This document shows, one piece after another, positions 896 to 47,800 of a stretch of 64,000 bases of DNA (positions are counted from its first letter, which is position 1; every line of letters starts with the position of its first letter). Under the pieces are notes generated by a model that saw only the letters and a list, made by a program, of their open reading frames with translations, was not told the DNA's origin and did not search any database. Source of the stretch: Candidatus Omnitrophota bacterium. Its GTDB lineage: Bacteria > Omnitrophota > Omnitrophia > Omnitrophales > Aquincolibacteriaceae. Both the position numbers and the translations under genes were made by a program. The DNA is taken from positions 25,402 to 89,401 of the forward strand of contig CAIOAT010000044.1 in NCBI GenBank assembly GCA_903856085.1. The letters are read 5' to 3'.

Positions 896-896
896 C

Positions 897-2028: not shown

Positions 2029-2048
<20 letters not shown>
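897..2048 (+). CDS. murG: UDP-GlcNAc:lipid I GlcNAc transferase MurG
   Basis: N-terminal VVYAGPTGGHVFPA glycine-rich loop and GGSQGS motif, about 380 aa, in a dcw context between ftsW and murC. Confidence 0.9.
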
Positions 2049-3429
<1,381 letters not shown>

Positions 3430-5207: not shown

Positions 5208-5213
5208 TCTTCC

Positions 5214-29956: not shown

Positions 29957-30087
29957 ATCTTTTCAATGGAAGACCAGTGCTGTCCTGGTTTTTCAGCGTT
30001 TCTATGCGTGGCGTGCTGAAATTTATTTCGATTCTTATTAAATCTTCCGTGCGAGTTGCCGTAAATGTATACACGGAGGATTTAACC

Positions 30088-30693
30088 ATGCAAACGGAAT
30101 TATTCGATCTGCCATTGCCCCGGACTCTTTCAGAGGATTCGACAGTTTCAAAGACTTCTTTCCTTGAAAAGACCTTCATCACGTTGCGTCTTGACCAGGC
30201 GATTGGGTTGACGCTTATCCTGCTTGTCATCTATGTACTGACCTTTTCTTGGGGAGTTGAAAAGGGAAAGAAGGCTTCACGCGAAAGCCAGGTGATTCGT
30301 ACGGGTTCTGCTGAGGTTCTTTCTTCGGAAACCTCACAAACTGTTGTTGCTTCGGTCGCCAAGACGCCCTTAGCGGCTATGGCTGATGAGTCTGTTTCCA
30401 AGGAAGTTCCGATCACAGTTGCAGACTTGCCTAAGCCTGTAGCGAAGGTCATGAAACCTGACGGGAAGTTCACCATCCAGCATGTGACCTATATTACCCG
30501 ATCTGCAGCGGATCGTGAGATCCAAAAACTTGCCCAGCGGGGATACAGTTCCTTTGTGATCCCGAGCGGAAAGCACTTGCAGGTTTGTATTGCGGCATTC
30601 CAGTCGCGTCAGGATGCGTCTCTGCTCCTCAAACAGCTGAGGGCTCAGGGCCTTGTTTCAGGCGACGCCTATGTGCGGCCGATGGTTCGCTGA
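30088..30693 (+). CDS. SPOR-domain protein (septal peptidoglycan binding); the ORF track gives an alternative start at 29977
   Basis: C-terminal SPOR fold (FTIQHVTYITRSAADREIQKLAQRGYSSFVIP...QVCIAAFQSRQDASLLLKQL). The ATG at 30088 has a GGAGGA RBS 7 nt upstream. It has a TM helix. Confidence 0.65.
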   Translation: MQTELFDLPLPRTLSEDSTVSKTSFLEKTFITLRLDQAIGLTLILLVIYVLTFSWGVEKGKKASRESQVIRTGSAEVLSSETSQTVVASVAKTPLAAMADESVSKEVPITVADLPKPVAKVMKPDGKFTIQHVTYITRSAADREIQKLAQRGYSSFVIPSGKHLQVCIAAFQSRQDASLLLKQLRAQGLVSGDAYVRPMVR

Positions 30694-31237: not shown

Positions 31238-31735
31238 ATGATTACGATCCGAAGATCTGTGCAGGATGATGACGCGGCAGTGGTCGATCTTATCACCAGT
31301 ATTATGGATAGCGAGTTTCATGACGCTAAGCACGCTTATCCGACGGAGGATGTCGAGTGCATTGAGAAGGCCTATGGCGGAATCGGTGAAGCGTTCTTTG
31401 TGGCGGTGGATAATAAATCACACAAAGTCGTTGGCACCGTTGCCATCAAGAAAGAGGATGGCCGTGTCGCATTGCTCCGACGATTGTTTGTCGCGCCCAC
31501 GCATCGCAATCTGAAGATCGGTAAGAAGTTGATTGATCGTGCGCTTGATTTTTGCCGTGAGGTGGGTTACGAAGAAGTCGTTTTTAAAACAACCTCGAAG
31601 ATGTCGGGGGCGATCGATCTTTGTCGCAAGAACGGTTTTGTTCAGCGAGCACATATCGTTTTGGGGCCCGTCGAACTTATCAAGTTATCGCTGTGCCTTC
31701 GTGAAGATGTCCATGCCATGAGGGGGAAAGATTAG
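31238..31735 (+). CDS. GNAT family N-acetyltransferase
   Basis: Motif A-like segment LFVAPTHRNLKIGKKLIDRALDF; 165 aa. Confidence 0.7.
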   Translation: MITIRRSVQDDDAAVVDLITSIMDSEFHDAKHAYPTEDVECIEKAYGGIGEAFFVAVDNKSHKVVGTVAIKKEDGRVALLRRLFVAPTHRNLKIGKKLIDRALDFCREVGYEEVVFKTTSKMSGAIDLCRKNGFVQRAHIVLGPVELIKLSLCLREDVHAMRGKD

Positions 31736-31736
31736 C

Positions 31737-32738
31737 ATGGGGTTTTTTAGCAAGAAGAAAAATGCCGACGCATCCTCATCGGTGCTTTCGGAATCTGAAA
31801 TTCAGAAAAGGCTGTATGGCGAGTTTTCTGCGGGAGCTTCTCATGTCGTGATCGGGGATCGGGAGCATCTCAAGGAGCCTGCTCCGGCGCCGTTCATGCC
31901 GAAAGAACCTGCTCTGGAGAAAGATTCGGCTCTCGATCTTTTTAACGTGCAAAGAGATGCGTTGTCTGAACCCCGCCCTGCTTCGCATCAGGTTTCTCCA
32001 GAACAAAAGCCGGCCGATCATGCATCGCGCTATGTCCCGCTTCATGATTTTGAAAAAAAACCTGTCTCTTCCGCTTCGGCGCCCTCCAGTTCGGATTCCT
32101 ACGCTCGTTTTCGTTATAACCGTCCTCAGGAAAATAAGTTAGCTGCGTTCCTGGATCTGTTTAGAGGCTTTTCCGAAAAAATAGGCGAGCTGGTCAAATT
32201 ATTTTTAGACCCCAAACAGGTGGCCATCCGACGTGTTTTTTATTGGGGCGCTGCGGTCCTTGTTGTTTTTCTCCTTTTTTGGGGAGTGAACGCACTCAAT
32301 TCTCAACGGGAAGAAGCACTACGTGCCCGGTATAAGATTCCTTCCGTAAAGATTCCGGGTGCTGTGGCGGTGGTTGCTCCTGCTAATCCTGTGGCGGAAC
32401 GTCCCGTGGTCATCACTCCGGCTCCTGTCAGATCGAAAAAAACGCATGCTCCCGAGGGGAGTACAGCGCCCGCGGCTCCGGTGAGTGGATCTTATGTGAT
32501 CCAGGTCGTGACCTATCCGACTAAACAGGATGCGGATCAGGTTGTGGAAACGTTTAAGCGCGCAGGTTTTCATGCTTTTGTTAAAGAGAATACACGGCCG
32601 AGCGGGCGACTTTTTTATCTCGTGCTTCTCGGAGGGTTCCGCACCGAGTCGGAAGCCCAGGCTCAGCTTTTGAGATTTCGCGCTAAAGATGTCGCACGTC
32701 CCTTTCAGGACGCTTTTGTGAAATCGAGCCGATCATGA
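31737..32738 (+). CDS. SPOR-domain membrane protein
   Basis: Central TM (VFYWGAAVLVVFLLFWGV), a Pro/Ala-rich linker and a C-terminal SPOR (YVIQVVTYPTKQDADQVVETFKRAGFHAFV...LGGFRTESEAQ). Confidence 0.65.
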   Translation: MGFFSKKKNADASSSVLSESEIQKRLYGEFSAGASHVVIGDREHLKEPAPAPFMPKEPALEKDSALDLFNVQRDALSEPRPASHQVSPEQKPADHASRYVPLHDFEKKPVSSASAPSSSDSYARFRYNRPQENKLAAFLDLFRGFSEKIGELVKLFLDPKQVAIRRVFYWGAAVLVVFLLFWGVNALNSQREEALRARYKIPSVKIPGAVAVVAPANPVAERPVVITPAPVRSKKTHAPEGSTAPAAPVSGSYVIQVVTYPTKQDADQVVETFKRAGFHAFVKENTRPSGRLFYLVLLGGFRTESEAQAQLLRFRAKDVARPFQDAFVKSSRS

Positions 32739-33103
32739 ACTCGCTCTGGGACGGTTTTAATAAACGGAAATTTCCAAGGCTTCATCTGACCTGTGAGGTG
32801 GCGATCCAGCCGGTGGGTAAGCAAAAGGCCTTTACCGCAAGCACGGAGGATGTGGGGATGGGGGGTGTCTCGGTGATGCTTCCGGAGCCTTTGGAGCGGT
32901 TCGATCGTTGCAAAATCAGTCTGGAACTTAAGGACGGCGAGCCTCCTGTCCAGTGCACCGGACGTAGTGTGTGGGTGATTCCGAGCCAGGACCGGAAATC
33001 TTCAAAAAAGAATTTTGACATAGGCTTCGAGTTCCTGGATCTGGACGAACTCTCCCGTAAGCGTTTGAAAACCTTTATCACTCCGCCCCTAAAGAAAGCT
33101 TAA
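32735..33103 (+). CDS. PilZ domain protein (c-di-GMP receptor)
   Basis: RxxxR-like KRKFPRLHL and DxSxGG-like EDVGMGGVSV motifs; 122 aa. Confidence 0.7.
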   Translation: MNSLWDGFNKRKFPRLHLTCEVAIQPVGKQKAFTASTEDVGMGGVSVMLPEPLERFDRCKISLELKDGEPPVQCTGRSVWVIPSQDRKSSKKNFDIGFEFLDLDELSRKRLKTFITPPLKKA

Positions 33104-33118
33104 CCGGTTTTTCGACCG

Positions 33119-33622
33119 ATGGCTCAACTCTCCTCATTCGATATCGTTTCACAGATTGATCTTCAGGAAGTCGACAACGCAGTCAATCAGGCGAAGAAAG
33201 AGCTCCAGACCCGTTTCGATTTCAAAGGAAGTCAAAGTTCTGTGGAATTCCTTAAGGATGAGAAAGAGAAAAAAATACGGTTGATCGCGGATGACGATAT
33301 GAAGTTGCGGAATCTGCAGGATATTCTCAAGACGAGAATGGCTAGCCGGAAAATTTCTCAGAAGGCGCTCGATTTTAAAACCGCGGAGAAGGCCTTCGAC
33401 GGTTGTCTCCGGCAGGAAGTGACTCTCGCTCAGGGAATTTCCCAGGAGAAGGCCAAGGAAATCGTGAAGATCATCAAGGACCTTCCTGTGAAGGTTCAGG
33501 CGGCCATTCAGGGGGACGAAATCCGGGTCTCCTCAAAGAATAAAGATGATCTTCAGTTCGTGATCCAGCACCTGCGGACCGCACCCCTGACCCTGCCAAT
33601 TCAGTTTGTGAATTTTCGATAA
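33119..33622 (+). CDS. yajQ: YajQ/UPF0234 family nucleotide-binding protein
   Basis: N-terminal SFDIVSQIDLQEVDNAVNQAKKELQTRFDFKG, characteristic of YajQ; 167 aa. Confidence 0.85.
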   Translation: MAQLSSFDIVSQIDLQEVDNAVNQAKKELQTRFDFKGSQSSVEFLKDEKEKKIRLIADDDMKLRNLQDILKTRMASRKISQKALDFKTAEKAFDGCLRQEVTLAQGISQEKAKEIVKIIKDLPVKVQAAIQGDEIRVSSKNKDDLQFVIQHLRTAPLTLPIQFVNFR

Positions 33623-33884
33623 CCATTTTATCTATAATGGGTTACAACGTTTTATAGGTTGTTCCCCATCGGCTTTGTCAGTGGGTGGATTTCAGAGCAC
33701 CAGAAGGTCGTTTTTCGACAAAAAAATCACCTCGCTCCCTTGTAAAATCCAAAACCATGTGCTACTTTTCCCTTGTCTGACGATGTTTTAAATTAATTAA
33801 ACCCATAAAAAAGTCGATACATAACCAACGGAAAGTCTGGCTTTTTCCGGTAATGGCGAATGCGAAAAAATAAAGGAGGAAGCG

Positions 33885-34274
33885 ATGGAAAGAGATAAGC
33901 GCAAGTTCAAGCGCTTTGACGCGTACATGAGCGTGAAGTTCACCGGAACCGAAGCGACGTCTGTTAAAGGAATCGGGTTGAGCCGGGATCTTTGCCGCGA
34001 AGGGTTGCAAATCAATTCAGACAAGTCGCTTCAGGAAGGGACTCCATTGGATTTGGAGATCACAATCCCGGATGATCCGAAGCCTATTTTCAGCTCTGGG
34101 TTGGTTATGTGGTCAAGGCCTTCCGAGGGAACGGACCAGGGCTATGACCAGGGAGTTCGGCTGCTGAACATGGATCCGGTCGATAAATTCCGCGTCCTGG
34201 ATTATGCGTACAATCACTGGCTTGAAACTAAGGTCAATGACTACGCGGATCCCGAAAGCGTTCAGGAGTGGTAA
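33885..34274 (+). CDS. PilZ-like domain protein
   Basis: KRKFKRFDAYMSV (RxxxR) and GIGLSRDLCREGLQI segments; an AAAGGAGG RBS upstream. Confidence 0.55.
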   Translation: MERDKRKFKRFDAYMSVKFTGTEATSVKGIGLSRDLCREGLQINSDKSLQEGTPLDLEITIPDDPKPIFSSGLVMWSRPSEGTDQGYDQGVRLLNMDPVDKFRVLDYAYNHWLETKVNDYADPESVQEW

Positions 34275-34300
34275 GACAGGACTCTTGAGGGCGTTTTTTC
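34259..34300 (+). terminator. Intrinsic terminator after the PilZ-like gene
   Basis: Stem CAGGAGT (34263-34269) / ACTCTTG (34281-34287) with a G-U pair and an 11-nt loop, followed by GGGCG-TTTTTT (T-run 34294-34299). Confidence 0.5.
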
Positions 34301-34368
34301 TTAGTTTCCTTTCCCTCTGTCTGAGACAGTCTTTTGGTATTTTACGGTTTAAAAGTTCTGCAGCTTCA

Positions 34369-34400
34369 GGGGGCGCCTCCGGCGCCCCTTGCTTATTTCC
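34369..34400. terminator. GC-rich perfect palindrome hairpin GGGGGCGCC-tcc-GGCGCCCC followed by a T-rich tract
   Basis: 8-9 bp GC stem with a 3-nt loop, then TTGCTTATTT. It lies in the 240-bp leader upstream of the cNMP-patatin gene and could be a second terminator or an attenuator. Confidence 0.4.
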
Positions 34401-34514
34401 GTGCCTGAGGTTTATTCCCTGACGGGTCACAAGGATTGCCCCAATCTCTGCTTTGCTTCGATTGATGGGTATTGGGACTGTAAGGTGAATTGTCTTTCCT
34501 GCCGATAATCCGCC

Positions 34515-36548
34515 ATGATGAATTTTTTCTCTTTTTGGAAAAAAATAAAGCCTGAGGTGAAAGAAGGGTATCTCGCGGAATCGATATCTCTTTTTTCATC
34601 CCTAACGTCGGACGAACAAACCCTGATCGAGCAGCATTCTCGATTGGTGGGGTTTAAACGTGGCGACATCGTTTATGAAGAGGGGGCGGTGCCCGACGCC
34701 TTCTATATTATTATTTCGGGGCGCTTTCGCCTTTTCACCCGCGCTCGCGGTCCAGAAAAGGAGTCTACGCTTCTTTTTTTCTATCGCGGAGAGCATTTTG
34801 GCGAAACCTCTCTTTTGACCGGTAGCGTTCATAGCGCGTCGGTAGAGGCTAAGACGGATGCCGTGGCGCTCAAGATCAGCGCCGAAAGTTTTCAGCAGCT
34901 TCTTCAGAAGATTCCGGCACTGGCGCTTCATCTAAGTCGCTCTCTTGGGCGGCATCTGACCCGGGAAGAGTTGGGGTACAGTCATCACCGGCGTGAGGTC
35001 CGCATTGCGGCTTTCTATTTTGCGGCTTCCACCGAGGGGATGGCGTGCTTCCTCATGGATTTCATCAAGACCTTACGGCGTGAGACCCAAAGTAAGGTGT
35101 TGCTTCTGGACCTCTCGGGAAAATTAAAGAATCTTCTTCCGGCGGAGTTCCGCCGTGGCGATGCTTCTGGATTCGATCTTAAAACAATGGATCCGTCCAA
35201 TGAATTATCGATTCAAAGGTCCATTCTGGCCCATGAAACTAGCTTTGATCTCCTGTCTTTTGCAGTGAATGCGGCCTTGGACGAGGATGAAAAGAAATTC
35301 ACGACACTCCTGACCTATTTGACCTACCGTTATGACTATCTCGTGCTCTGTCTGCCGGACCGCAATACCCCCGTCGCCGTTAAGGCCCTCAATTACTCAG
35401 ATCGTGTTTATCTTTGGGCGGAAAAAAGAACGGATGTTTTTACATTTGCTTCTAAAAAAGCAGGAGAGCTCTGTCAGGACTTCGGCTTTAGCAAAAACGA
35501 GATCAAGATCATCATGCCATCCCAGGAGGGGAAGGCTTTTTCTGCGGACGGTCTGGGTGTAGCTGCGGAGATACAGCTCTTTTCCACGCTTCCATCGCTT
35601 CAATATCAGCGGTATCAGTACGAAAAGACCATGACCTTTTTGGCGAAGGAATGGTCGGAACGGTTGGTGGGGTTGGTCTTGGGCAGTGGCGCCGCGTACG
35701 GTCTTTCGCACATTGGGGTGCTTCGGGTTCTGGAACAAGAGAAGATCCCCGTGGACGTTCTCGCGGGCTCTAGTATCGGAGCTCTTATCGGTACGCTATG
35801 GGCTGCCGGTTATGATTCGCATGAGATAGAAAAGATCGCTAAATCTCTGCACAAGAAGAATGCGTTCTTCAAGCTGCTGGGATTTCGGGACATTTCGGCG
35901 ATCCACCGCGGATTTTTTAAGGGCAATCAGATCACTCAATTTCTGTCTGCGTATTTGAAAGATATGACCTTCTTGGATCTTAAGGTTCCAGTCAAGGTAG
36001 TGGCCACGGACCTTTTAACCTCAGAAGAGGTGGTGTTAGACTCCGGGAGTGTGCTCAACGCGGTCCGCGCATCGATCTCGATTCCAGGTTTTCTGCGTCC
36101 TTATCCTTATAAGGGAAGTTATCTGATCGACGGCGGAATCGTGGATCCTTTGCCGGTGAAAATCCTTTCTAATATGGGCGTTCGCAAGATCATTGCGGTC
36201 AATGTCCTGCCGGCTCCCAAAGATCTGATCGAGCGAAATGAGCTGCGGCGCAAGGCTTTTCACCAGGGGTTCCAGCGGCGGGGCTATTGGCAACGAATCG
36301 TGATGAAGACTCTGGACCGCGTCCAGCGGCGCTATACCGCCAACATCTTTAACGTCATGATGAATTCCATCATGTTTACCGAATTCGAGATCGCGCGCAT
36401 GGCAGGAAGTGAAGCCGATGTTTTTATCCACGCGGCTGTCCCCGATGCTCACTGGATCGAATTTTTTTCAGCGGACAAATTTATCGATGAAGGCGTGAAG
36501 AAGACTCGTGAACAGCTGGCGGACATACGCCAGCTTCTGCTAGAATAA
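34515..36548 (+). CDS. Cyclic-nucleotide-binding domain fused to a patatin-like phospholipase
   Basis: cNMP-binding signature GEHFGETSLL...ASVEA. Patatin motifs GLVLGSGAAYGLSHIGV (GxGxxG), GSSIGALIG (GxSxG) and DGGIVDPLP (catalytic Asp). Confidence 0.85.
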   Translation: MMNFFSFWKKIKPEVKEGYLAESISLFSSLTSDEQTLIEQHSRLVGFKRGDIVYEEGAVPDAFYIIISGRFRLFTRARGPEKESTLLFFYRGEHFGETSLLTGSVHSASVEAKTDAVALKISAESFQQLLQKIPALALHLSRSLGRHLTREELGYSHHRREVRIAAFYFAASTEGMACFLMDFIKTLRRETQSKVLLLDLSGKLKNLLPAEFRRGDASGFDLKTMDPSNELSIQRSILAHETSFDLLSFAVNAALDEDEKKFTTLLTYLTYRYDYLVLCLPDRNTPVAVKALNYSDRVYLWAEKRTDVFTFASKKAGELCQDFGFSKNEIKIIMPSQEGKAFSADGLGVAAEIQLFSTLPSLQYQRYQYEKTMTFLAKEWSERLVGLVLGSGAAYGLSHIGVLRVLEQEKIPVDVLAGSSIGALIGTLWAAGYDSHEIEKIAKSLHKKNAFFKLLGFRDISAIHRGFFKGNQITQFLSAYLKDMTFLDLKVPVKVVATDLLTSEEVVLDSGSVLNAVRASISIPGFLRPYPYKGSYLIDGGIVDPLPVKILSNMGVRKIIAVNVLPAPKDLIERNELRRKAFHQGFQRRGYWQRIVMKTLDRVQRRYTANIFNVMMNSIMFTEFEIARMAGSEADVFIHAAVPDAHWIEFFSADKFIDEGVKKTREQLADIRQLLLE

Positions 36549-36586
36549 GTCCTCAGAACTGTGTAACCTCAGCGGAGAATTCTTGA

Positions 36587-37774
36587 ATGAAAGAGATCGT
36601 CATCGCCGGTGCGGTCCGAACGGCTCAAGCGAAATTGGGCGGGGCTTTTAAGGATCTTACAAATCAAAAGCTTGGGGAGGTCATCCTTCGAGGGCTTTTG
36701 GAACGCACGCATCTGGATCCGAAAGCCGTGGACGAGGTTATATTTGGTTGCGTGGGACAGCAATCGGATGCCCATAATGTGGCTCGTGTCATTGCTTTGA
36801 TGGCTGGTATCCCGCAGTCGGTTCCAGCCTTTACCGTCAACAGGAATTGCGCTTCAGGGATGCAGGCGATTGTGAGTGCGGCCCAGATGATCCTGGCGGG
36901 GGATGCTGATCTGGTGGTGGCGGGCGGGGTCGAGGTGATGTCCTCGTTGCCATTCGTCAACCGTGATCTTCGATTTGGGAAAAAGCTTCGTGATTCCAAA
37001 ATGATTGATTCTCTTTGGGAAGGCCTCCGGGATCCTGTGTCTGGAATGATGATGGGAGAAACTGCGGAGGTTTTGGCTGAAGAATTCAAGATCAGTCGAG
37101 CAGCGCAAGATGAATTCGCGCTTGAATCGCACAAAAAAGCTGTTCAGGCCGTGCAATCCGGCAAGTTCAAGGCCGAGATCCTTCCGGTGATTTTGCCTCC
37201 GAGGTCTAAACGGGATAAAACTCAGGAGATCTTCATCGATGATGAAAGCCCCAATCCGGCATTGACCCTCCAAGAACTTCAAGGCTATTCGTCCGTTTTT
37301 AAAGAACAGGGGACTGTGACAGCCGGAAATTCGTGTCCTATTTCAGACGGTGCCGCCGCGGTACTGGTGACCCATCGGGGCAAGGCCGAAGAGCTTGGTT
37401 TGCAGGTCCTCGCGACGCTCCGGAGCTGGGCTTTTAGTGGAGTGGATCCTCGGCGCATGGGGATTGGTCCCGTGGATTCGACCCGGAAGGCGCTTCAAAA
37501 AGCAAAGCTTGTCATGAGGGATATCAATCTTGTGGAGATTAATGAGGCTTTTGCGGCGCAGTGTTGTGCGGTGGAAAGGGCGCTTGCGATTGACCGCTCA
37601 ATCGTCAATGTGAATGGCGGGGCGATCGCGTTGGGTCATCCTGTCGGTGCCACAGGGGTGAGGATTGTTGTGACCTTGCTTCATGAGATGAAAAGACGAA
37701 ATTCCTCCTTGGGACTGGTCTCTCTTTGTATTGGCGGCGGACAGGGTGGTAGCATGATCTTGGAGCGTCAGTAG
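36587..37774 (+). CDS. Acetyl-CoA C-acyltransferase (thiolase)
   Basis: Active-site Cys in NRNCASGMQA, NVNGGAIALGHPVGATGVR, CIGGGQG. Confidence 0.9.
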   Translation: MKEIVIAGAVRTAQAKLGGAFKDLTNQKLGEVILRGLLERTHLDPKAVDEVIFGCVGQQSDAHNVARVIALMAGIPQSVPAFTVNRNCASGMQAIVSAAQMILAGDADLVVAGGVEVMSSLPFVNRDLRFGKKLRDSKMIDSLWEGLRDPVSGMMMGETAEVLAEEFKISRAAQDEFALESHKKAVQAVQSGKFKAEILPVILPPRSKRDKTQEIFIDDESPNPALTLQELQGYSSVFKEQGTVTAGNSCPISDGAAAVLVTHRGKAEELGLQVLATLRSWAFSGVDPRRMGIGPVDSTRKALQKAKLVMRDINLVEINEAFAAQCCAVERALAIDRSIVNVNGGAIALGHPVGATGVRIVVTLLHEMKRRNSSLGLVSLCIGGGQGGSMILERQ

Positions 37775-37867: not shown

Positions 37868-38707
37868 ATGAAAAAGAGTTTGGGTTTTGCATTTTTGATC
37901 TTAGCATTGATTCATTGCGGAGCTTCGGCGCCCCGCCAAGGGGGAACCGGCGATGTGGCGGGAACTCCTAAAAAGGCCGGAAGTAGTAAGGCGTCAGTTT
38001 CACCCCAAGGTTTTGCGGCAGATCAGATTATGAAATTCTTTGGTCGCAAGACCGGCAATGACCTCATGATCGAAAAAAAGAGCAAGAAGCAAGAAAATGC
38101 GACTGTGTCTTCAAAGGGTGTGGCAAACACGGCCAAGGGGTTTGACTTGCCGCCTAAACCCATGTCTCGGTATGCATCGAGCCCTACGAAAGCTACGGGG
38201 ATTGATGTGCCAGCGCCGGCTTTTCAACTCCCTTCGAAGCCTGTGCCTGGAAATGTTTCGGGTATCCTGAAAAGTCAAAAAAGAGTGGTGCCAGCACCTG
38301 TTTTTCAGATGCCGGCTAAGCCCGTGCCTGTGAATGTGCCGAGTGTTATGAAGGTGAAAAAAATCGTGATTCCGCCACCTCAGGCGATGGGTCCTTCGGT
38401 TGTGGCAATCCGCGAAGAGATCCAAAAGATCTTTAGCTTGAATAAGTCGATTAGCCAGATGAATGCAAAACGGGCTGCTCAAATCGCTAAGGCTCAGGGA
38501 AAAGCGAGTGTTCATGAAAAAATTCTGGATGTGAAAGGAGACACGCAGAAGCCGTCCGTTGGTCGAGGGATGCCTGGTAAAAGTGAACTTTTGGCGCAGG
38601 AAAAATTACGTAGCGCTCATGAAGAAATCCAGCGCAATGCTCAAATGACCGATGAGCTCAATGGAATTCCCACTGTCGCGGGCCCAGAACCAGAAAAAAA
38701 ATCATAG
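37868..38707 (+). CDS. Secreted proline-rich protein with tandem PAPxFQxPxKPVPxNV repeats
   Basis: Signal peptide MKKSLGFAFLILALIHCGASA and two ~27-aa repeats at 38210-38370. Confidence 0.5.
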   Translation: MKKSLGFAFLILALIHCGASAPRQGGTGDVAGTPKKAGSSKASVSPQGFAADQIMKFFGRKTGNDLMIEKKSKKQENATVSSKGVANTAKGFDLPPKPMSRYASSPTKATGIDVPAPAFQLPSKPVPGNVSGILKSQKRVVPAPVFQMPAKPVPVNVPSVMKVKKIVIPPPQAMGPSVVAIREEIQKIFSLNKSISQMNAKRAAQIAKAQGKASVHEKILDVKGDTQKPSVGRGMPGKSELLAQEKLRSAHEEIQRNAQMTDELNGIPTVAGPEPEKKS

Positions 38708-38731: not shown

Positions 38732-40603
38732 ATGGCCCTGAAGCGTTCTGGATTTCCGACAGATTGCGTCGAAGAAAATGGTAATCTAGTCCAGGTTTTC
38801 CGGGAACGTGCCCGTTTTTTTGGATCCAAGAAAGCCATTTTTTATAAGGTCCAAGGCGAATACGCCGGCTCGTACAGCTGGCAGGATTGGATGAAGATCG
38901 TCCGGGAAACCGCGATGGCTCTCCATTCGCTCGGCATACGTAAAGGCGACCATGTGGGGATTCTTTCGGAGAATAGTCCCGAATGGACTTTCGCCGATCT
39001 CGGGATTTTGAGCCTCGGCGCCGTGACTGTGCCCCTCTACCCTACCGCCTCTCTCGAGGACATTCGCTATATCATCGATCACGCCGATCTCAAGGCACTC
39101 TTCGTTTCTACGGAGGAACAATACCGCAAGATCGAAGGATTTAAATCAAAGTTTCTTCCGGCGGGCATTATCCTTTTTACTCCGGGTGGGGTGGGAGATG
39201 TTCCTGCCCTTGCAACGTTTCGAGAGATGGGGCGTTGCCATGATCTCAATCATGGCGATCTCTATGAGCAATGCGTTAGAAACGTTGGGCCAGATGATCT
39301 TGCGACTATTATTTATACCTCCGGCACGACTGGCGCTCCCAAGGGCGTGATGTTGACGCACCGGAATTTTATCGCGAATTATCAGGGCTCCTTCCAGCGT
39401 ATCCAGATCGACGACCGGGATTCCGTCCTGTCATTCCTTCCACTCAGCCACGTCTTTGAACGTCTGGCAGGCTATTATTATCAAGCTGCTTACGGAGTTT
39501 CGATCGCCTACGCCGAAAGTTTCATGACCGTTGCGGAAGATATCCGGAAGGTGAAACCAACTATTGTGGTAGCGGTGCCGAGGTTCTATGAAAAGACCTA
39601 TGCTCGGATCCTGGAAAAGGTCCAAAAGGCGCCTGTTTGGAAGCAGCGGCTTTTTTACTGGTCGGTTCGCATCGGGACAAAGACTGCGCAGATGAGGATG
39701 CGCGGGCATTCTGTTCCGATCTGGCTTGCTTTTTATAACTGGATCGCCAAGAGGGTCGTCTTTAACAAAATCAAACAAGCCATGGGCGGGCGCATCCGTT
39801 TTTTTATCTCGGGCGGCGCGCCGCTTTCCCGGGACCTGGCACGGTTCTTCTACGCGGCGGATATCATGATCTTGGAAGGCTATGGTCTGACAGAGACATC
39901 GCCTGTGATCGCGGTTAATGCCCTCGATGATTTCAGATTCGGAACTGTGGGAAAACCCATCGCCGGGATCCGTGTTAAGATCGCAGAAGATGGCGAAATT
40001 CTGACTCAAGGACCCTGCGTGATGAAAGGTTATTACAATAATCCTCAGGCGACAGCCGATTGCATTAAGGGAGGTTGGTTTCACACGGGAGATATTGGTC
40101 ACTTTGATGATGAAGGATTTCTGCATATCACGGATCGCAAAAAAGACATCATTGTTACTTCGGGAGGAAAGAACGTTTCCCCTCAAAATATTGAAGGGCG
40201 CATCCTCGGAGACAATCTCTTTTTTCAGGCCATTGTGCTAGGGGACAAACGGCCCTACCTTTGTGCCCTGCTTGTTCCCCATAAGCAGGAGATTCTCCGT
40301 TATGCCGAGCAACACCGCATCAGCGATCTCTCCTATGAGAAACTTCTGGAGCATTCTGGAATTCAGGCTTGGGTCCGTGAACGGCTTGAAAAACGCATGG
40401 AAGGTTTGGCGGGTTTTGAGACGGTGAGAGCTTTTATCCTCCTGCCGCAGGAGTTCACCCTGGCCTCAGGAGAAATGACGCCGACCCTGAAGATCAAGCG
40501 CCGCGTCGTGATGAAAGAGTATCAAAAGGCGATCGACGAACTTTACCGCAAGACCGACCATGAATGGGGGAAGCGGCAATCCTCCTCGGCAAGCGCATCG
40601 TGA
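38732..40603 (+). CDS. Long-chain fatty-acid--CoA ligase (AMP-binding)
   Basis: IYTSGTTGAPKGVMLTHRN AMP-binding motif, GYGLTETS, and the ITDRKKD/KIKRR C-terminal motifs. Confidence 0.88.
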   Translation: MALKRSGFPTDCVEENGNLVQVFRERARFFGSKKAIFYKVQGEYAGSYSWQDWMKIVRETAMALHSLGIRKGDHVGILSENSPEWTFADLGILSLGAVTVPLYPTASLEDIRYIIDHADLKALFVSTEEQYRKIEGFKSKFLPAGIILFTPGGVGDVPALATFREMGRCHDLNHGDLYEQCVRNVGPDDLATIIYTSGTTGAPKGVMLTHRNFIANYQGSFQRIQIDDRDSVLSFLPLSHVFERLAGYYYQAAYGVSIAYAESFMTVAEDIRKVKPTIVVAVPRFYEKTYARILEKVQKAPVWKQRLFYWSVRIGTKTAQMRMRGHSVPIWLAFYNWIAKRVVFNKIKQAMGGRIRFFISGGAPLSRDLARFFYAADIMILEGYGLTETSPVIAVNALDDFRFGTVGKPIAGIRVKIAEDGEILTQGPCVMKGYYNNPQATADCIKGGWFHTGDIGHFDDEGFLHITDRKKDIIVTSGGKNVSPQNIEGRILGDNLFFQAIVLGDKRPYLCALLVPHKQEILRYAEQHRISDLSYEKLLEHSGIQAWVRERLEKRMEGLAGFETVRAFILLPQEFTLASGEMTPTLKIKRRVVMKEYQKAIDELYRKTDHEWGKRQSSSASAS

Positions 40604-40616
40604 GAGCTCGCCCGTT

Positions 40617-41453
40617 ATGATTTCGAATTGGATCCAGAATTACTTTACAAGCCGGGATGGAACAAAGATCTTCTACCGTTTTTATCCGGTGTCCGGGGCG
40701 CGGCATACTGTGATCATGCTTCACGGTTACGGAGAGCATTCCGGACGTTATGAAAAGTTCCCAATCAGAATGGGGCGCCTTTCTGCGCAGTTTGCGGTGA
40801 TGGATCTTCGTGGCATGGGGAAGTCTGGAGGCCCGCGAGGCGATATCAGGTCTTTTGACGATTATTTGCAGGATGTCTCCGGGTTTGTGGAGCATCTCCG
40901 TGCAACCTATGCTATTCCCAAGAAGTTCATCTTGTTCGGACACAGTATGGGAGGCCTTGTCGCTGTGTATTGGGCCATGAAAAATCCGGAAGCCGTGAAG
41001 TTATTGATTCTTTCCGCGCCGTTCTTAGGACTCAAATTTTCGCGGTTCATTTCTCTGGTGAATCATCTCTTGCTTGCTTTCGCGCCTCGTTTTGTTTATC
41101 GCAATCCCGTGAGTTCTAAAGCGCTGAGTCATGACCCAGCCGAGATGGCGATCCATCGGAAGGATCCTCTGATCCTTCGTTATATCTCCGCCCGGTTGAT
41201 CGGAGAGATTTTCCGACGCACGGAAACGATGCGGACGCAGCCAATCCTTTCGATCCCATTTCCGGTCCATATGCTTGTGTCTGGGGAAGAGTACGTTGTA
41301 GATCCCAAGGCCTCCAGGCGTTTCTTTGATCGCCTTGTGGCGCCACGTAAAGACCGCACCTGTTTTGATGGTTTTTACCATGAGCTCTTTAACGAGAGGG
41401 AACAACAGAAGGCCTTCAATGTTTTGAAGACAATTATCGAAGATTGTGTATAA
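40617..41453 (+). CDS. Alpha/beta hydrolase, lysophospholipase/monoacylglycerol lipase-like
   Basis: HGYGEHSGRY and nucleophile elbow GHSMGG. The ATG at 40617 lies just past the upstream stop; the track start at 40560 overlaps. Confidence 0.8.
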   Translation: MISNWIQNYFTSRDGTKIFYRFYPVSGARHTVIMLHGYGEHSGRYEKFPIRMGRLSAQFAVMDLRGMGKSGGPRGDIRSFDDYLQDVSGFVEHLRATYAIPKKFILFGHSMGGLVAVYWAMKNPEAVKLLILSAPFLGLKFSRFISLVNHLLLAFAPRFVYRNPVSSKALSHDPAEMAIHRKDPLILRYISARLIGEIFRRTETMRTQPILSIPFPVHMLVSGEEYVVDPKASRRFFDRLVAPRKDRTCFDGFYHELFNEREQQKAFNVLKTIIEDCV

Positions 41454-41495: not shown

Positions 41496-41568
41496 GGGCC
41501 TGTAGCTCAGCTGGTAGAGCGCTGCATTCGCATTGCAGAGGCCAGGAGTTCGACTCTCCTCAGGTCCA
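41496..41568 (+). tRNA. tRNA-Ala (anticodon CGC)
   Basis: 73-nt cloverleaf: acceptor GGGCCTG/CAGGTCC with the G3:U70 Ala identity pair, D-arm GCTC/GAGC, anticodon stem CTGCA/TGCAG with loop TTCGCAT, T-arm AGGAG/CTCCT with loop TTCGACT. There is no encoded CCA. Confidence 0.9.
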
Positions 41569-41590
41569 CTCTTTCCTTAATGCCTAAGAA

Positions 41591-41880: not shown

Positions 41881-44800
41881 ATGGCTGGAACTTTAACGGA
41901 CGATAAAGCCCGACGACGAGAGCGTTTCTCGAAGCGTCTCATTGCGATCTTTGTTGTCGTTGTTTTTACGCTTTTTGACGCCGTTCGCTATGCTCCACAA
42001 GGCTATGCGAGCCCTATTGCTACAGTCGTTGATCCTGTCCTTGCGTCTGTTTCGATTCCCAAGGAACTTGGTAAGGTGGAGGAATCCTTTCGCGGGACTG
42101 CGGGCAAGACTGTGATCTTCATTGAGGACGCCCATGATTCCCTTGAAGCCCAGGAGAATATCGCAAAGCTTATCGGGAAGCTCGTAAAAGAAAATGGGAT
42201 CAAAACGGTTTTTGAAGAGGGCTACGAAGGCTCGGTTCCTACGGATAAGTTTTTTGGTTTTATTCAAGATCCCAAGATCAAACAAAAAGTCTCCTATTTC
42301 CTTTTGGATAAACTCCGTGTCGGCGGCGCGGAATACGCGCATATCAATCGGGTAAACGATTTCAAGCTGATCGGGGTCGAGGATCTCGAGCTGTACGGCG
42401 AGAATATCCAGTCCTACCGAACCTCCTCCCGAAATAGGCAAAGCATCGATGAAGACTTGAAAGAATTGTTTTCACAAATCGCCGTCCTTGCCGACCGGTA
42501 TTTTTCAAAGGAACTAAGGCGTTGGCTAAAGCACAAGGATCGTTTCGGGGAGGGGCAACTGCCGCTTCTTGATTATCTGAAAAGAACGCGTGACATCTTT
42601 CTTCAAAAGTGCTCGGCGCGCATGTTTGGGCAGCAATATCCGGCGGTGACGATCCTTCTCGCTGCGAAGTCATCGCGGGATCCGAAGCTTCTCGATCAGC
42701 TGAACACTTTGGATCTTAAGGTTGTTTTTGACGAAGTTTTGAGGTTGGAACGGGATCTTTCCAAGAGTTTTCTTGAAAATGAGAGAGATCGCAAGATCTT
42801 CGATTATTATCAGGCCCTGGGGCTTCTTAAGAGATTGAATCGAATCGAACTGACTCAGCCGGAATATGAAGCAGCCCAAGAGACGCTTCAGAAATTCGAG
42901 ACGCAAGAATTAGCGAATTTCATAGTATCTCTCACTCATCATTCATTGGTTCTTTCCAAAGAGTGGGAGCATCACATCCAGGATGCTATCCGGTTCTATG
43001 ACGTGGCGCACGGGAGAGATCGATCAGTCGACGTTCGTCTCAGAGAATTTCTTCGGAATAAAGAAGGAGATTCTGCGATTCTTGTGTTTGGCGGGTTCCA
43101 TGCAAGCGGCATCAAGGAGATTCTAAGGCAGCAAGGTCTTTCTTACATCGTAATTTCGCCGAAGATTACTTCCGTTGATAAAAAGCACCGGGATTATTAC
43201 AAACGGCTAATGTCCGAAGGTCGTCACTCCTTCGAAACCCCACTTCTCGTGGCTCGAGCCAACAGGTCTCCGGGCTATTTTTATTTAGCCGCCACAGGCA
43301 AAGAAGAATTTGTTCGTGCGGAACTCCGAGATATTGCTTCTTCCGTCAAGGCGCTTGGAGAGAACGCTGACTCGCTGCTGATTGAGCGCGGCCTCGCTGC
43401 ATTTGATCAATCGCGGGAGCATCAGCTTGTCAATGCAGAGACTGAAACATCGCAGACTCGTTCCGAGGTGCACTTGGATACTGTTCATTTAAGTGCTTTT
43501 CAGCCGGCGGCGGTGGTGAGCCGCCGTTCGGAGATGCGGGTGATGGAACCGGAAGTGCGAAAAGTTCTGGATGAAAAGTTCCAGGCGGTGGCGAATTTTC
43601 TCTCTGCTCGTGAAGAGTATATGCCGGGTCGCAATGTTCCCCTCCGAGACCAATGGGCTCCGACTGAGATCAGTAAGCTTGCGTTTTTAAAAGGGGAGAA
43701 GATCCTTGTCATGATTCTCGGGACGTGGGAGGACAAGGTCGCTTTTGAGGCCGCGCCAATCATCCGGGATCTTCGGGCCCGTGGTTATGATATCAAGGTT
43801 TTGACCAGTGGGAAATACGGGAACAAACCCGGAGTATTCTTTGATGCGCAGGGAAACCGGCTTCCTGAAGCTGTCGGTTACAAGCAAATCTTAGAAAAAG
43901 AAGGGGTGTCCGTGGATTTTGTGGAGCCTGATTCGACGAATTCTGGAGACAATATCCTGTTTTCCAAGAAAAAAATCGATGAGGCCGGATACAAGCCTGA
44001 TGTGATCATCGTGATGCAGAACGGGCTTCTTCAAAAGCGGGCCGGGTTGAGCATTGTCCGCCAGCATTTTGGGATTAAAAATGAAAAAGAAGAACATGAG
44101 GCCAAGAGAAAATTCGACGCCTCCGGCCTCCGGCTCATCAGCTACGCGCCCTATGTACCCAATGTTTCCGGACAAAGCGATCCAGAGGTCCTGCTAACTC
44201 TTGAATACGCATTAAAAGAGGTCGAAGCCCTGAAAAACTATCCCGCAATAGGATATACCATTCCTGTAGCGATCCCAGAGGATGTCCGCCAAGCAGCGGC
44301 AGATCTGACCGCAATGCTGGCTGAAATCAACAAGAGGATCGAAGAAAAAGCTAAAATTAAAGAGCATGTTTCTGACCTCGGGCAGGTGAAAGAGCGTCTT
44401 CGCACCAAATGGAATGAGGTTCGTTGGGTTCACAACAGGATTCCCGGGAAGAAAAATATTCCTGAGCCCGTTGGGCAATGGACTCAAGATGGTTTTTTAT
44501 GGAAAGGCATTTATAACCAGATTGATCCTCATGCTCTGGAAACAGCGATCGATCCCAATCCACCCGCCGGGCAAGAGCCGGCAAAACCAGGCTGGGTATT
44601 CGGGGATTATCCGGATGCCTCTCAAGTTCTTTTTACGGTGGATATCGACGGAGAACAAGGCAGAGTGCTTGTGGCTGGGGACGCGCAGCTTTCCAACGAA
44701 TCCCTTCTTATTCTCGATCGCGATACGCATCTGGTCTTGACGGATGAAAAATCCAATCTTTCGCTTTTGAAATTCCACAGGCGAAGCGGACTGAAAGGTT

Positions 44801-47800
44801 ATATCAATTTATGGGGGATAGGTCAGTTCCCGCGCTTGCACGATCATTTGGTTGAAGATATGCCCATCTTCGGATTACCGCTGAGAAAATCAGGCGGAAA
44901 AGTTGATGGTCTCGAAATGCAGGAGCTTGGGAATTATGCGGCCTCAACGCTGGTTTATACGGATGATGACGATGCGAAGCTTGCGGCGGTCATGGCCAAG
45001 ACCGCGCAGGAATTGTTGGAGGAAAAGATCCCGCATCAGGTGTTTCTTGCGGCCGGAAAGGTCATTTTTGTTCTGCGCGGTAGCGATCCACAGACGCTTC
45101 ATAAAGTCGAAGGGGAAAATTTCGCCGGACGGTACCTTACGGGTCAATTTGTCGGAGGGGTTGTCGGGTATCCGAAGGCGAGTGCCGATAAGATCACGCC
45201 TGAAAAATATCAGGACATAATGAGACGGGTTAGTCAGCCGGTCTCGATACGTGCTCGGATCATTTCAAATTTGCAACAGAAGGGGGTGGTTTCTCCTGCC
45301 CGGAATAATAAACGTTCCGAGATGCGTAAAGATACGGCGGAACAAGTGACGACCGAGATCTATGATCCGAAGCAAGCGGGGATCGATGTCAGTGTGAATC
45401 CCGTGCCAAGCGGGCATTTCCGGTATGACCAGGCGTCGAAACAACATTTCTGGGATGGAAAACAGGTTCTTTTTCGTAAAGACGAAGGCATTGCTAGAGA
45501 ATCCGCAGCTCCAGGAGCCCGGACTTGGCCGGTCGATATTGCCTGGGAAGAACATGAAAAAGATTTTGCGGCGGCTCATCCGTTGTTCGATCTTCACTCC
45601 TATGGAAATCTTTACAACAACGCTGGGTTTGTTGTCTTTGACGGGAAAACAGGCATGCTTTATTACCAGGCCGGGGAAGCCTTTGAGAAAAAAGCGTATT
45701 CGATGCTGGTTTCTTGGAACGATCGCACCGTTACCTCCGAGAATGTCCGTTTCGAACAGATCGCCGGAGGCAAGGCCGGTAAAGTTCAGGTGTTTGTTGA
45801 TGGGCAGTCGGGACCGATTCAGGACAAGATCCGGTTCGCGGTGTTCGGACAGAGATTAATCCACAAAGGCGCCGTGGTGCCTCTTGAGGCGGTCGCAGAT
45901 CAATTCGAGGACCTGTTTCAGCTTTATCGGCTTCCTCAATTCATGCAATGGAGAGAAAACGCGGCGCCAGTCTATGGACGAACGATCGGTGTGGAGGAGT
46001 TGGCCCGTTGGAGGACTACCGGCGATCCCAGGGACAAGGCCTTATTTATGGACGTTGTTCGTCATGATGGCTACATGGAGATTGATCTGACAGGTTATTT
46101 GCGGGAAGAAAAAGACAGCAAAGTCACTGTCAGGACCCTCAAAGAGATCAAGGACGGGGCTCTTACTCCGTTTGGCTATAAAGAAGTGGGGCTCGCGGAG
46201 CCGCAGGCGTTAAAGCGAGGCGAATATTTTATCCAAGACAACAGGCTGCATATTCGTTTTCTCCCTTATCCGTACCCGCATCATGTGCTCGGGATCACGG
46301 CATCGGGGAAAGTCGTTTCGGTTCTTTACATAGGAGACAAATATAAAAAACAGGGCGTTACGCTCCAAGACCTTCCTGAGAGCGTTCGCGAGCGCTATGG
46401 GAATCAGGAGAAAGATCCCATCCAGGAACTCCTCGTGATTGCGCAGGGTCGGGACAGTTTCCGCCGTCGTGACGGAAGACTTTCCGAACGCAGTCCTTAT
46501 ATCAATCTCAAGGGAACTGCCGCCATCCTTTTTGAACGGATCATGCCACCTGCCGCATCTACTTCTCAGGATTTGCTTGCGCCTCGCTCCGAGATGCGGA
46601 ATGCTGATGCGTCAGCGGTAGGCATGGCTGCTGTAAAACGACAAGCCATGGAAGCTCCCGACCCAGAGGGTTTCCTGAAAGTTGTAACAGCGTATCGCCT
46701 CGGAAAAGGATTGCTGACCACCGATAAGACTTTTTTCCTAACGGGTATTTATGACTTTCTTGGAAACACCGATCCCATTATCTCGACTCTGGAAGATATC
46801 GAAAGACGCACGAAGACCGGGCGGCAGCTTTTAGAGGACGTTTGGCAGGATCCTCAACAGCGTTCCAAGCTGTTTGATTTTGCCATTTCATACCATTACA
46901 GCTACACGCGCGAAGACCGGCTTCTAGAATTGGTTCGTAAACTTATCGAGGGGATCCAACAGCGGGGGGATTTTGCTTCGCAGGAAAAAATAACCATTCT
47001 GGACATAGGAACCGCTCCTAAGAAGTTTGGCTCTCCGACCTCGATGCAGACGATGGAAATGTTCCGCGCTGCTTTCCCAGACAAGCAAATAGAACTTAGC
47101 TCCGTAGACATGCAATTCCCAGCTTCATTTAAATTTAATGCCGAAGGAGTATATGTTGATGAGCGGACAGGTATCCGTTACGTCAACTACGACATCCGTA
47201 AGGGACCGTTGCCATCCGCTGATATTGTTATTGCCGTGAATCTGTTGGATCTTTATCAGGATGTTCAGGAGAGGAAACGTATTCGGAAGAATATTTTTCA
47301 ATCCAGCTTGAAGTATGTCGTTACTGGCGTCAAGAGTACGGAGGATATTTTCCGGCGTTCTAACGAGCAATCTGATCAATGGACAAAGATCGCAACAGTC
47401 CAGTTAATGGAGGAATGGTATGCGCAAAGTCTCTACCAAGGATTGGGTTTTTCTTCAGAAAACATAGGCTTCCAGAATTTGGCGGTGCGAAACGACTTGT
47501 ACGTCAATTACGAGTTCATGAAACCGCTTTTCGCGTTGCTCGAGAAGACAAAAACAAGCCGTTATCATGCCGCGTTCCAGGTTCTTACCGTGCTCTTTTT
47601 GCGCGGGGAATTGGAGGCACTTGTGTCGGGTGAGACGGTGAGTTTTCCAATGGAAGGCAGGCCTTTAGCAAAGTACTTTCCCGCAGAGAAGGATCGGGAG
47701 GTTATCCACCAGTTTCTGGTTTTTATGCAGGATCTGAAAAAGACGAGGGTTTTGAAGAATGAGGCATCGAACGATCCGAATCATGTGATCCCCCGGTTCT

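Follow-up and report, generated by a model that had tools for sequence, protein, structure and literature searches.

The subject of this work is a set of four consecutive genes in the DNA of a Candidatus Omnitrophota bacterium, studied within a 64-kb stretch that was analysed at its full length and that we call the window. All four lie on the + strand and encode, in this order, a single-domain PilZ protein (PilZ1), a YajQ protein, a second single-domain PilZ protein (PilZ2) and a protein, termed PAT, in which a cyclic nucleotide (cNMP)-binding-like domain precedes a patatin lipase. They had been singled out, from the letters of the DNA, as a compact module of four second-messenger receptors acting on membrane lipids, which we refer to as the original prediction. 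Its four open reading frames (ORFs) proved exact in coordinates and strand, the three small genes said to lie within 1.5 kb span 1,540 bp, and the assignments to the PilZ, YajQ, PilZ and cNMP-patatin families are all above the Pfam cut-offs in a hidden Markov model (HMM) check. The idea of a compact module itself does not survive as well. We rather lean, with modest confidence, towards a conserved stretch of the Omnitrophota chromosome that would comprise three adjacent and separately transcribed units, the last of which is headed by PAT and forms a lipid operon under a sigma-28-type promoter. The features are collected in Table 1.

The conservation of the locus was followed in one genome per GTDB species, which gave 79 loci covering about 10 kb on each side of PAT. 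Gene order across these loci was mapped by phmmer, promoter elements were counted over 58 non-redundant loci, and domains were called at the curated cut-offs of Pfam and NCBIfam (22.5 bits for PF07238). About 55 species-level genomes, in which PAT identity goes down to 39%, keep the same gene order, and so does every orthologous locus with enough flanking sequence. This order runs through M16 peptidase, rpe, lepA, signal peptidase, SPOR1, small basic protein, GNAT, SPOR2, PilZ1, YajQ, PilZ2 and PAT, and continues 3' of PAT with (thiolase), the protein encoded at 37868-38707, the FadD-like gene, the Hydrolase_4 gene and a giant gene. The arrangement of the four genes is not due to chance. Nor is it specific to them, as the conserved order extends to unrelated housekeeping genes, and the window is itself a long co-directional run of such genes (dcw genes, glycine cleavage genes, uvrD, a plsC-like gene, trpA, rpe, lepA and lepB). 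Within this order, yajQ is missing from the cluster in three species (L051, L056 and L061) and PilZ1 in three others (L060, L063 and L064), and the spacing in these six species leaves no room for a diverged copy. PilZ1 and YajQ are thus individually dispensable there. The 15 distant PAT homologues, which share the same architecture, have no adjacent PilZ or YajQ gene. Lineage-specific insertions are also seen at fixed points of the order: a GH1 beta-glucosidase gene between the signal peptidase and SPOR1 genes, glpK, and the genes for a 3-hydroxyacyl-CoA dehydrogenase (3HCDH) and an enoyl-CoA hydratase (ECH); they are located at 1056-2342 and 6442-7938 in L001, and in L032-L069.

The element on which our reading turns lies just upstream of PAT, where a TAAGG block is followed, 16 nt downstream, by the octamer GCCGATAA. 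Over the non-redundant loci, its logo reads T-G-C-C-G-A-T-A-[A/C]-[A/T], with a T-[A/T]-A-[A/G]-G block 16 nt 5' of it. The core CGATA is found at 30 nt or less from the PAT ATG in 53 of the 58 loci. The element belongs to PAT rather than to the region: GCCGATA occurs 5' of PAT in 48/58 loci, whereas each of 16 neighbouring genes has it upstream in no more than 0-5 loci, and the element is present whether the upstream neighbour is PilZ2 or glpK. In the window, the PAT site is the only complete intergenic sigma-28-type architecture. Further sigma-28-like sites precede the orthologue of the 37868-38707 protein or the FadD-like gene in L004, L039 and L062, and the TAAGG-N16-GCCGATAA element is absent upstream of the distant PAT homologues. 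The published consensus of the 'flagellar' sigma-28 combines a -35 TAAA with a -10 GCCGATAA (PMC8325347). The octamer agrees with this -10 at 7 of 8 positions across loci and at all 8 in the window, and the consensus of the -35 columns is moderate, at 0.5-0.8 bits per position. The element shares with FliA, SigD and WhiG promoters the octamer, placed at promoter spacing from a block that resembles the -35 TAAA in part, and it differs from them in that it abuts the start codon and would drive lipid-catabolic rather than flagellar genes. In Rubrobacter, pilus and c-di-GMP genes are transcribed from WhiG-type promoters, and c-di-GMP in turn controls the sigma factor (PMC8325347). We consider TAAGG-N16-GCCGATAA to be the probable promoter of PAT.

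This placement has a consequence for translation. The gap between the octamer and the ATG is of 5-12 nt, with a mode of 7, and no Shine-Dalgarno sequence precedes PAT in the window. In the fliC promoter of Pseudomonas aeruginosa, the octamer extends from -15 to -8 (PMC12784957). As the 7-nt mode equals the distance from -8 to +1 in fliC, and as the Shine-Dalgarno sequence is lacking, the predicted start of transcription falls on the A of the ATG or beside it, and the PAT transcript would be leaderless or nearly so. The original prediction had proposed an unusual PAT leader with two hairpins as a regulatory checkpoint. Both hairpins exist, but they lie upstream of the predicted promoter and therefore are probably not part of the PAT mRNA. 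One is the intrinsic terminator of PilZ2, and the other (34317-34329, 5 bp) is not conserved. A structured PAT leader was rejected, since the 240-nt spacer between PilZ2 and PAT is no more stably folded than shuffles of it (z = -1.17) and the terminator hairpin is its sole conserved structure.

PilZ2 would form a unit on its own, between a sigma-70-type promoter and this terminator. The promoter motif, TTGTAW-N10-16-YRTGYTA, sits 70-180 nt 5' of PilZ2 in 45 of the 58 loci. The PAT element differs from it, so that promoters of the housekeeping type look ordinary in these genomes. The arms of the terminator co-vary in close relatives (GGGGCGCC/GGCGCCCC, GGAGCGCC/GGCGCTCC and GGGGGCCC/GCCCCC), with the pairing kept at the same position, and an equivalent hairpin followed by a T-run is found in distant loci (L002, L039 and L046). 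In about half of the related lineages, glpK comes close behind PilZ2. The predicted 5' untranslated region (UTR) of PilZ2 is about 110 nt long and contains a conserved block at 33795-33830 (columns ~65-97 of alignment A5), which reads GTTAnTTTAAC ... AAAGTC and, in the clade of the window, TTAATTAAAC-N11-AAGTCGATAC. This block is kept across 34 diverse loci. A structured 5' UTR was rejected, since RNAalifold on these 34 sequences predicts zero pairs. In the close relatives L006, L018 and L066 the block resembles a second, weaker sigma-28-type site, and distant relatives are devoid of the CGATA core. The same 5' UTR also carries a hairpin at 33829-33849 (CGGAAA ... TTTCCG), which close relatives retain, in L010 through changes that still pair (GGGAA/TTCCC), and which is not seen in distant loci.

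Between the terminator and the PAT promoter lies a short repeat, GGATTGCCCCAAT ... ATTGGGAC, found in tandem-like copies in L006 (9606-10001), L007 (9663-10001) and L020 (4121-4446). The number of copies accounts for the range of spacer lengths (94-394 nt), and the repeat seems to be a spacer filler rather than a conserved element. A dispersed repeat was rejected, as GGATTGCCCCAAT has no other copy in the window. So was a small upstream ORF from the TTG at 34490, whose start is not conserved in close relatives, as judged by eye. As for known RNAs, Rfam at the gathering threshold returned only a tRNA-Ala over the whole window, and the riboswitch candidate was discarded since a permissive search of 32500-36800 gave just a chance-level match to sroH.

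Upstream of PilZ2, the genes of the small basic protein, GNAT, SPOR2, PilZ1 and YajQ overlap or are tightly packed, so that they are probably co-transcribed as a first unit, of which the small basic protein gene is probably the first gene. The TIGR04137 family, to which this small protein belongs, is known otherwise from Chlamydiae and Verrucomicrobia, in keeping with an affiliation to the PVC group. The genes of two SPOR-domain proteins (29977-30693 and 31737-32738) bracket those of the small basic protein and GNAT. SPOR domains bind septal peptidoglycan, and the translational coupling between SPOR2 and PilZ1 may hint at a link of this PilZ to cell division and not to the lipase.

Both PilZ proteins resemble single-domain adaptors such as MapZ of P. 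aeruginosa, with a length of 122-129 residues, an N-terminal RxxxR and the right spacing of the second motif. RxxxR, whose presence had been set as a check by the original prediction, is intact in 53/53 PilZ1 and 60/60 PilZ2 orthologues. The second motif is where both depart from MapZ-type adaptors. PilZ1 (R11xxxR15) carries the non-canonical D39-V-G41-M-G-G, or [N/D]-V-G-x-G-G in general: R11, R15, G41, G43 and G44 are invariant in the 53 aligned orthologues, position 39 is N or D, and the Ser of [D/N]hSxxG that contacts c-di-GMP is a Gly in all 53, while the D/N, the hydrophobic residue and the final Gly are kept. The motif is defined as [D/N]hSxxG, and variants of it can still bind, as in PA2989 (bioRxiv 10.1101/814665). 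In PilZ2 (R6xxxR10), the motif is D35-L-C37-R-E-G40, or D-L-[C/S]-R-E-G; R6, R10, D35 and G40 are invariant among 60 orthologues, and position 37 is a Cys in 32 of them (the window and 31 others) and a Ser in 28. PilZ2 also has a nearly invariant C-terminal segment of about 30 residues (96-124), which is a lineage-specific extension. Its identity across orthologues is 62-97%, apart from L069 (50%), against 39-92% for PAT. Its homologues number 459; the 120 listed are all about 130 residues long, and the taxa named among them are all Omnitrophota, bar one generic 'bacterium'. Both PilZ proteins are probably c-di-GMP adaptors.

YajQ is a full-length member of its family, above the cut-off of the NF003819 equivalog model of NCBIfam (198 vs 146 bits), with 60-96% identity among orthologues. 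The original prediction was right about the family, and its view of the ligand is weakened: the YajQ proteins of Xanthomonas (Xcc), P. aeruginosa and Stenotrophomonas maltophilia bind c-di-GMP, and those of Escherichia coli, Clostridium and Bacillus cereus prefer ATP or GTP (PMC4199771). Binding is thus restricted to some lineages, and it has no known sequence signature. Compared with XC_3703 of Xanthomonas, CdgL of Lysobacter and YajQ of E. coli, the present protein belongs to the same family, but its gene has no adjacent LysR-type gene and stands next to SPOR and PilZ genes instead. It would be the general YajQ nucleotide-binding protein of this genome.

Table 1. Genes, protein domains and predicted regulatory elements at the locus (positions in the window)
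Feature	Position	Strand	Basis and remarks
Small basic protein, TIGR04137	30884..31216	+	NCBIfam 67.6 bits vs cut-off 50; position kept in all syntenic loci
GNAT acetyltransferase	31238..31735	+	Pfam PF00583; 21 nt after small basic protein gene, 1 nt before SPOR2
SPOR-domain protein SPOR2	31737..32738	+	Pfam PF05036; stop overlaps PilZ1 start (ATGA at 32735-32738)
PilZ1, single-domain PilZ, 122-129 aa class	32735..33103	+	PF07238, 51.2 bits
YajQ (DUF520/UPF0234) nucleotide-binding protein	33119..33622	+	PF04461, 202 bits; 15 nt after PilZ1
Predicted sigma-70-type PilZ2 promoter	33740..33768	+	-35 TTGTAA; 17-nt spacer ending TGc (extended -10); -10 TACTTT
PilZ2, single-domain PilZ	33885..34274	+	PF07238, 39.2 bits; strong Shine-Dalgarno upstream
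Predicted PilZ2 intrinsic terminator	34367..34401	+	Terminator scan; hairpin 34367-34391, 11 bp, 9 G-C, then T-rich tail
Short repeat GGATTGCCCCAAT ... ATTGGGAC	34433..34478	+	Alignment A4; up to three copies in relatives
Predicted sigma-28 (FliA/WhiG)-type PAT promoter	34481..34508	+	TAAGG 34481-34485; 16-nt spacer; GCCGATAA 34501-34508; ATG at 34515, 6 nt on
PAT, 677 aa	34515..36548	+	Three domains; Pfam, AlphaFold2, Foldseek
PAT cNMP-binding-like domain	residues 25-147, nt 34587-34955	+	cNMP_binding PF00027, residues 47-132, 72.7 bits
PAT ParA/MinD-fold domain without P-loop	residues 163-380, nt 35001-35654	+	Profile and fold search
PAT RssA/PlpD-type patatin lipase domain	residues 385-677, nt 35667-36545	+	Patatin, residues 387-551, 109.9 bits
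Acetyl-CoA C-acyltransferase (thiolase)	36587..37774	+	Pfam; TIGR01930, 467 bits; 38 nt after PAT
Conserved protein without Pfam, NCBIfam or PADLOC match	37868..38707	+	Conserved position; lipoprotein-like signal peptide by eye
Long-chain fatty-acid--CoA ligase (FadD-like)	38732..40603	+	Pfam AMP-binding, 268 bits; best NCBIfam matches FadD11 and long-chain ligase models
Alpha/beta hydrolase, Hydrolase_4	40560..41453	+	PF12146, 200 bits; overlaps end of FadD-like gene

The PAT protein deserves a closer description, as it is made of three domains and not of the two that had been noticed. Its homologues at 45-94% identity, of about 677 residues, come nearly all from Candidatus Omnitrophota genomes. 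The first domain has a fold that matches structures of PKA, PKG and CRP. It shares with CRP and with the sensors of the PKA regulatory subunit and PKG the beta-barrel and the Gly-Glu and Ser-Ala of the phosphate-binding cassette, and it departs from them by a His that stands for the Arg. Thus the cassette, another check set by the original prediction, is kept in part: F95-G-E97 and S107-A108 are there, whereas the phosphate-binding Arg is replaced by H106 in 85 of 85 homologues, a residue that aligns on the R of R-T-A in a PKG-like protein (HMM alignment). The fold matches include 6h4g, which we take to be an Arg-restoring mutant of the PKA regulatory subunit of Trypanosoma. The Trypanosoma subunit is devoid of the cassette Arg, and it binds nucleosides and not cAMP. 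Taking the four proteins together, PilZ2 alone looks near-canonical, and none of the four appears disqualified as a nucleotide receptor.

The catalytic domain has PlpD as its best solved relative (E 1.2e-46; Foldseek TM-score to the target 0.86). The catalytic dyad is intact, with G418-S-S420-I-G422 and D539-G-G invariant in 85 homologues, in line with the GxSxG and DGG of the original prediction. The glycine-rich motif is a variant, GSGAAYG against SGGAARG in PlpD, with a Tyr for the Arg, so that the basic residue of GGGxR/KG is lacking. ATGL-type neutral lipases are likewise devoid of a basic residue in this motif. PAT also differs from PlpD in having no autotransporter part, and from RssA by its score (141 bits against an equivalog cut-off of 272). 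As in NTE/PNPLA6, a cNMP-binding-like domain precedes the esterase, and the Joint Genome Institute (JGI) labels its orthologues 'NTE family protein'. Unlike NTE, however, PAT has one sensor domain instead of three, it has no membrane anchor, and a pseudo-ATPase of ParA/MinD fold is placed between the sensor and the lipase.

This middle domain, of about 220 residues, had been overlooked. The segment between the two Pfam domains has no Pfam match even at E = 10, and in the AlphaFold2 model of PAT (pLDDT 84), residues 163-380 form an alpha/beta domain. A profile of it (alignment A3, hmmsearch against PDB sequences) matches the ParA-family ATPase 3ea0 (E 9.5e-6), and a separate model of the domain gave Foldseek matches that include ParA, Soj, FlhG, FleN and BcsQ (TM-score 0.70). 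It has in common with ParA/MinD ATPases the fold, the strand order and a YDYL(V/L)LxLP segment; it differs from them in lacking the Lys of Walker A and in being embedded between other domains. In the clade of the window the Walker A position reads FAASTEGMA, with no Lys, and there is no conserved Walker A motif in the ParA-like region of the 18 orthologues aligned in A1. The P-loop is lost, and usual ATP binding is therefore ruled out. In distant homologues (27-31% identity; other Omnitrophota, Planctomycetia and Elusimicrobia; L074-L084), GxxxxGK[ST] is kept at this position. GSGAAYG, GxSxG and DGG are likewise present in these proteins, and the cassette His is retained by most of them, with the Glu lost. 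PAT thus belongs to a multi-phylum family of sensor - ParA-like - patatin proteins, in which the ParA-like part has decayed in the lineage of the window. This part probably serves in dimerisation or docking.

The lipid-related context that had been proposed for PAT is borne out by the genes that follow it, which encode a thiolase, a FadD-like ligase and a Hydrolase_4 protein (Table 1). The latter is related to lysophospholipases and monoacylglycerol lipases, with NCBIfam matches to BipL and lysophospholipase L2 that stay below their cut-offs. In L001, 3HCDH and ECH genes come after the thiolase gene. On the 5' side, glpK (GlpK equivalog match, 647 bits) stands directly before PAT in 26 loci, which are among the more divergent ones; there it starts at a median of 60 nt after PilZ2 and ends 19-190 nt before PAT. 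These lipid-catabolic enzymes would be the most coherent functional partners of PAT. In the working that we propose, the third unit (PAT, thiolase, the 37868-38707 protein, FadD-like ligase and Hydrolase_4) would be driven by the sigma-28-type promoter. PAT would be a cytoplasmic, ligand-gated lipase, and binding of a ligand to its N-terminal His-type sensor would release the lipase activity. The FadD-like enzyme would activate the freed fatty acids for beta-oxidation, which would shorten them and for which the thiolase is encoded in the window and the 3-hydroxyacyl-CoA dehydrogenase and enoyl-CoA hydratase in relatives. Hydrolase_4 would take off the second acyl chain and GlpK, where it is encoded, would consume the glycerol.

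Several points weigh against this reading. The adjacency of PilZ2 and PAT is unbroken in about 55 species, glpK being the sole interruption, and PilZ2 is more conserved than PAT; together, these two facts hint at a possible direct link between PilZ2 and PAT, or between PilZ2 and GlpK. The -35 is TAAG(G), set 16 nt from the octamer, where the consensus has TAAA and 15 nt. Four close relatives (L008, L015, L016 and L044) have an extra segment, with a GGAG Shine-Dalgarno sequence in it, that puts the element 100-200 nt upstream of PAT. Leaderless expression is therefore not universal, and the gene apparently alternates between a leaderless and a leadered form among relatives. A search for a sigma-28 gene by phmmer (E. 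coli FliA and B. subtilis SigD) within 10 kb on either side of PAT returned only an ECF-type sigma factor, in the unrelated locus L084. The Omnitrophota genome papers that were text-searched contain no occurrence of 'flagell'; the flagellum-linked FlgV family is reported from Omnitrophota in the literature. Furthermore, sequence prediction underlies the promoters, the limits of the operons and the leaderless start, and both lipase activity and substrate class are putative, given that GSGAAYG lacks the usual Arg or Lys. The analysis shows the domains, motifs, fold and synteny and the conserved promoter-like and terminator elements, whereas the transcription units, sigma-28 use, leaderless translation, the ligands, the substrates and any contact between PilZ and PAT are inferred from them.

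An integrated second-messenger module, in the spirit of the original prediction, is unlikely. Here PilZ1, PilZ2 and YajQ would sense c-di-GMP, PAT would sense cAMP or cGMP, and the small receptors would dock onto PAT, for instance onto its ParA-like domain, to control membrane-lipid remodelling. Such a module would account for the adjacency of the four genes down to the most divergent PAT, for nothing but glpK ever separating PilZ2 from PAT, for the intact RxxxR of both PilZ proteins and for the nearly invariant C-terminal segment of PilZ2, which suggests a fixed partner; a catalytically dead ParA-like domain also needs some role. Moreover, parts of a c-di-GMP system do exist in the phylum. 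A REC-GGDEF response regulator is encoded about 2 kb 3' of a distant PAT paralogue in an Omnitrophota genome (L078, 8295-9551), and an MshEN-PilZ protein 5 kb from another distant PAT homologue (L077, 16948-17814, - strand). Against it, promoter-like elements and a terminator separate the units, and since housekeeping genes share the conserved order, adjacency alone is weak evidence. Besides, yajQ or PilZ1 is gone from the cluster in six species, and the 15 distant PAT homologues do without neighbouring PilZ or YajQ genes, the sole match being the MshEN-PilZ gene on the opposite strand. At the level of ligands, c-di-GMP binding by YajQ is limited to certain lineages, PilZ1 is without the motif Ser (as is PilZ2 of the window, with its Cys) and PAT is without the cassette Arg. 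A phmmer search for genes of GGDEF, EAL and HD-GYP proteins, which the original prediction had named, and of class III cyclases found none in the window and none in the syntenic loci; of its probes, GGDEF alone was validated by a match.

Another explanation concerns the element upstream of PAT, and we hold it to be unlikely. TAAGG-N16-GCCGATAA could be the operator of a transcription factor, or a translation or RNA-binding signal in a short 5' UTR, with PAT transcribed from elsewhere, for instance by read-through from PilZ2 or glpK. The sigma-28 gene that was not found around PAT, the off-consensus -35 half, the short distance from the end of glpK to PAT in 26 loci, which permits read-through, and the displaced element of four relatives, in which PAT is kept with a Shine-Dalgarno sequence, would all suit this explanation. 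It fits less well with an octamer that conforms to the -10 consensus, with two halves whose promoter-like spacing is kept, with an ATG distance that clusters where a start on the A of the ATG is expected, and with a specificity for PAT (48/58 vs 0-5 loci). Furthermore, a terminator lies directly upstream wherever PilZ2 is the neighbour. Finally, it is very improbable that PAT is an anti-phage or toxin effector of CBASS or Pycsar type, a cyclic nucleotide-activated phospholipase that would destroy the membrane of its own cell upon infection: its structural matches to CapV and CapE filaments, that of its sensor to the CNB domain of Pycsar TIR effectors (PADLOC, E 8.5e-12) and the weak NCBIfam matches to models of CBASS lipases and of anti-phage phospholipases (E 5e-4 to 7e-4, well under the cut-offs; CBASS_lipase 18.9 bits vs a cut-off of 200) are of the kind expected from generic domain similarity, while the Pfam cNMP_binding and PlpD/RssA models score much higher, no CD-NTase, pyrimidine cyclase or other nucleotide cyclase is found among the neighbours, and PAT sits at a fixed housekeeping position in about 55 species, not in a variable island, together with fatty-acid catabolic genes.

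The rest of the window holds a few features that should be mentioned. Two giant + strand ORFs lie downstream of the cluster: one of 2,768 aa at 41881-50187, and a second that extends from 50715 to beyond 64000, where it runs off the end of the window after at least 4,428 aa. The gene found here in relatives codes for 14,954 aa (L001) and 23,959 aa (L004). A tRNA-Ala (anticodon CGC) lies at 41496-41569, in the gap that separates the Hydrolase_4 gene from the first giant ORF. At the other end, the cell-division and cell-wall genes ftsW, murG, murC, murB, ddl, ftsQ and ftsA occupy 20-7276, with gcvT following ftsA; no FtsZ-like ORF was found in the 64-kb window by phmmer with an E. coli FtsZ sequence as the query, at E values of up to 1.

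Omnitrophota are uncultured and mostly ultra-small, and host-dependent lifestyles are suspected for them. To our knowledge, almost nothing is known of their gene regulation, and a literature search on the phylum (flagella, c-di-GMP receptors, patatin) found no paper describing this locus. One may venture, as a long shot, that in host-dependent or predatory members a sigma-28-type factor switches on a leaderless lipid-scavenging operon (PAT lipase, lysophospholipase, acyl-CoA synthetase and beta-oxidation genes) beside giant surface-protein genes, that PAT responds, through its His-type cassette, to a nucleotide or nucleoside of non-canonical kind, and that the highly conserved PilZ2, as the c-di-GMP adaptor, docks onto the dead ParA-like domain of PAT or onto GlpK, so that a lifestyle switch would be linked to the consumption of host or stored lipids. 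What appears to be new is the pseudo-ATPase domain of ParA-like fold, the cassette with its His, and the conserved, putatively leaderless sigma-28-type promoter that heads a predicted lipid-catabolic operon. The locus also calls for caution, as it illustrates that, where gene order is strongly conserved, adjacent signalling genes are no evidence of a functional module. If our reading is right, it would provide the first testable candidate for an alternative-sigma (sigma-28-type) promoter and a leaderless gene in the phylum, a phylum-wide, three-domain regulated lipase with an unusual His-type cassette sensor, a ParA/MinD domain that has lost its catalysis and acts as a linker, and three small proteins that are candidate receptors of c-di-GMP and offer defined variants of the motif (Ser to Gly and Ser to Cys).

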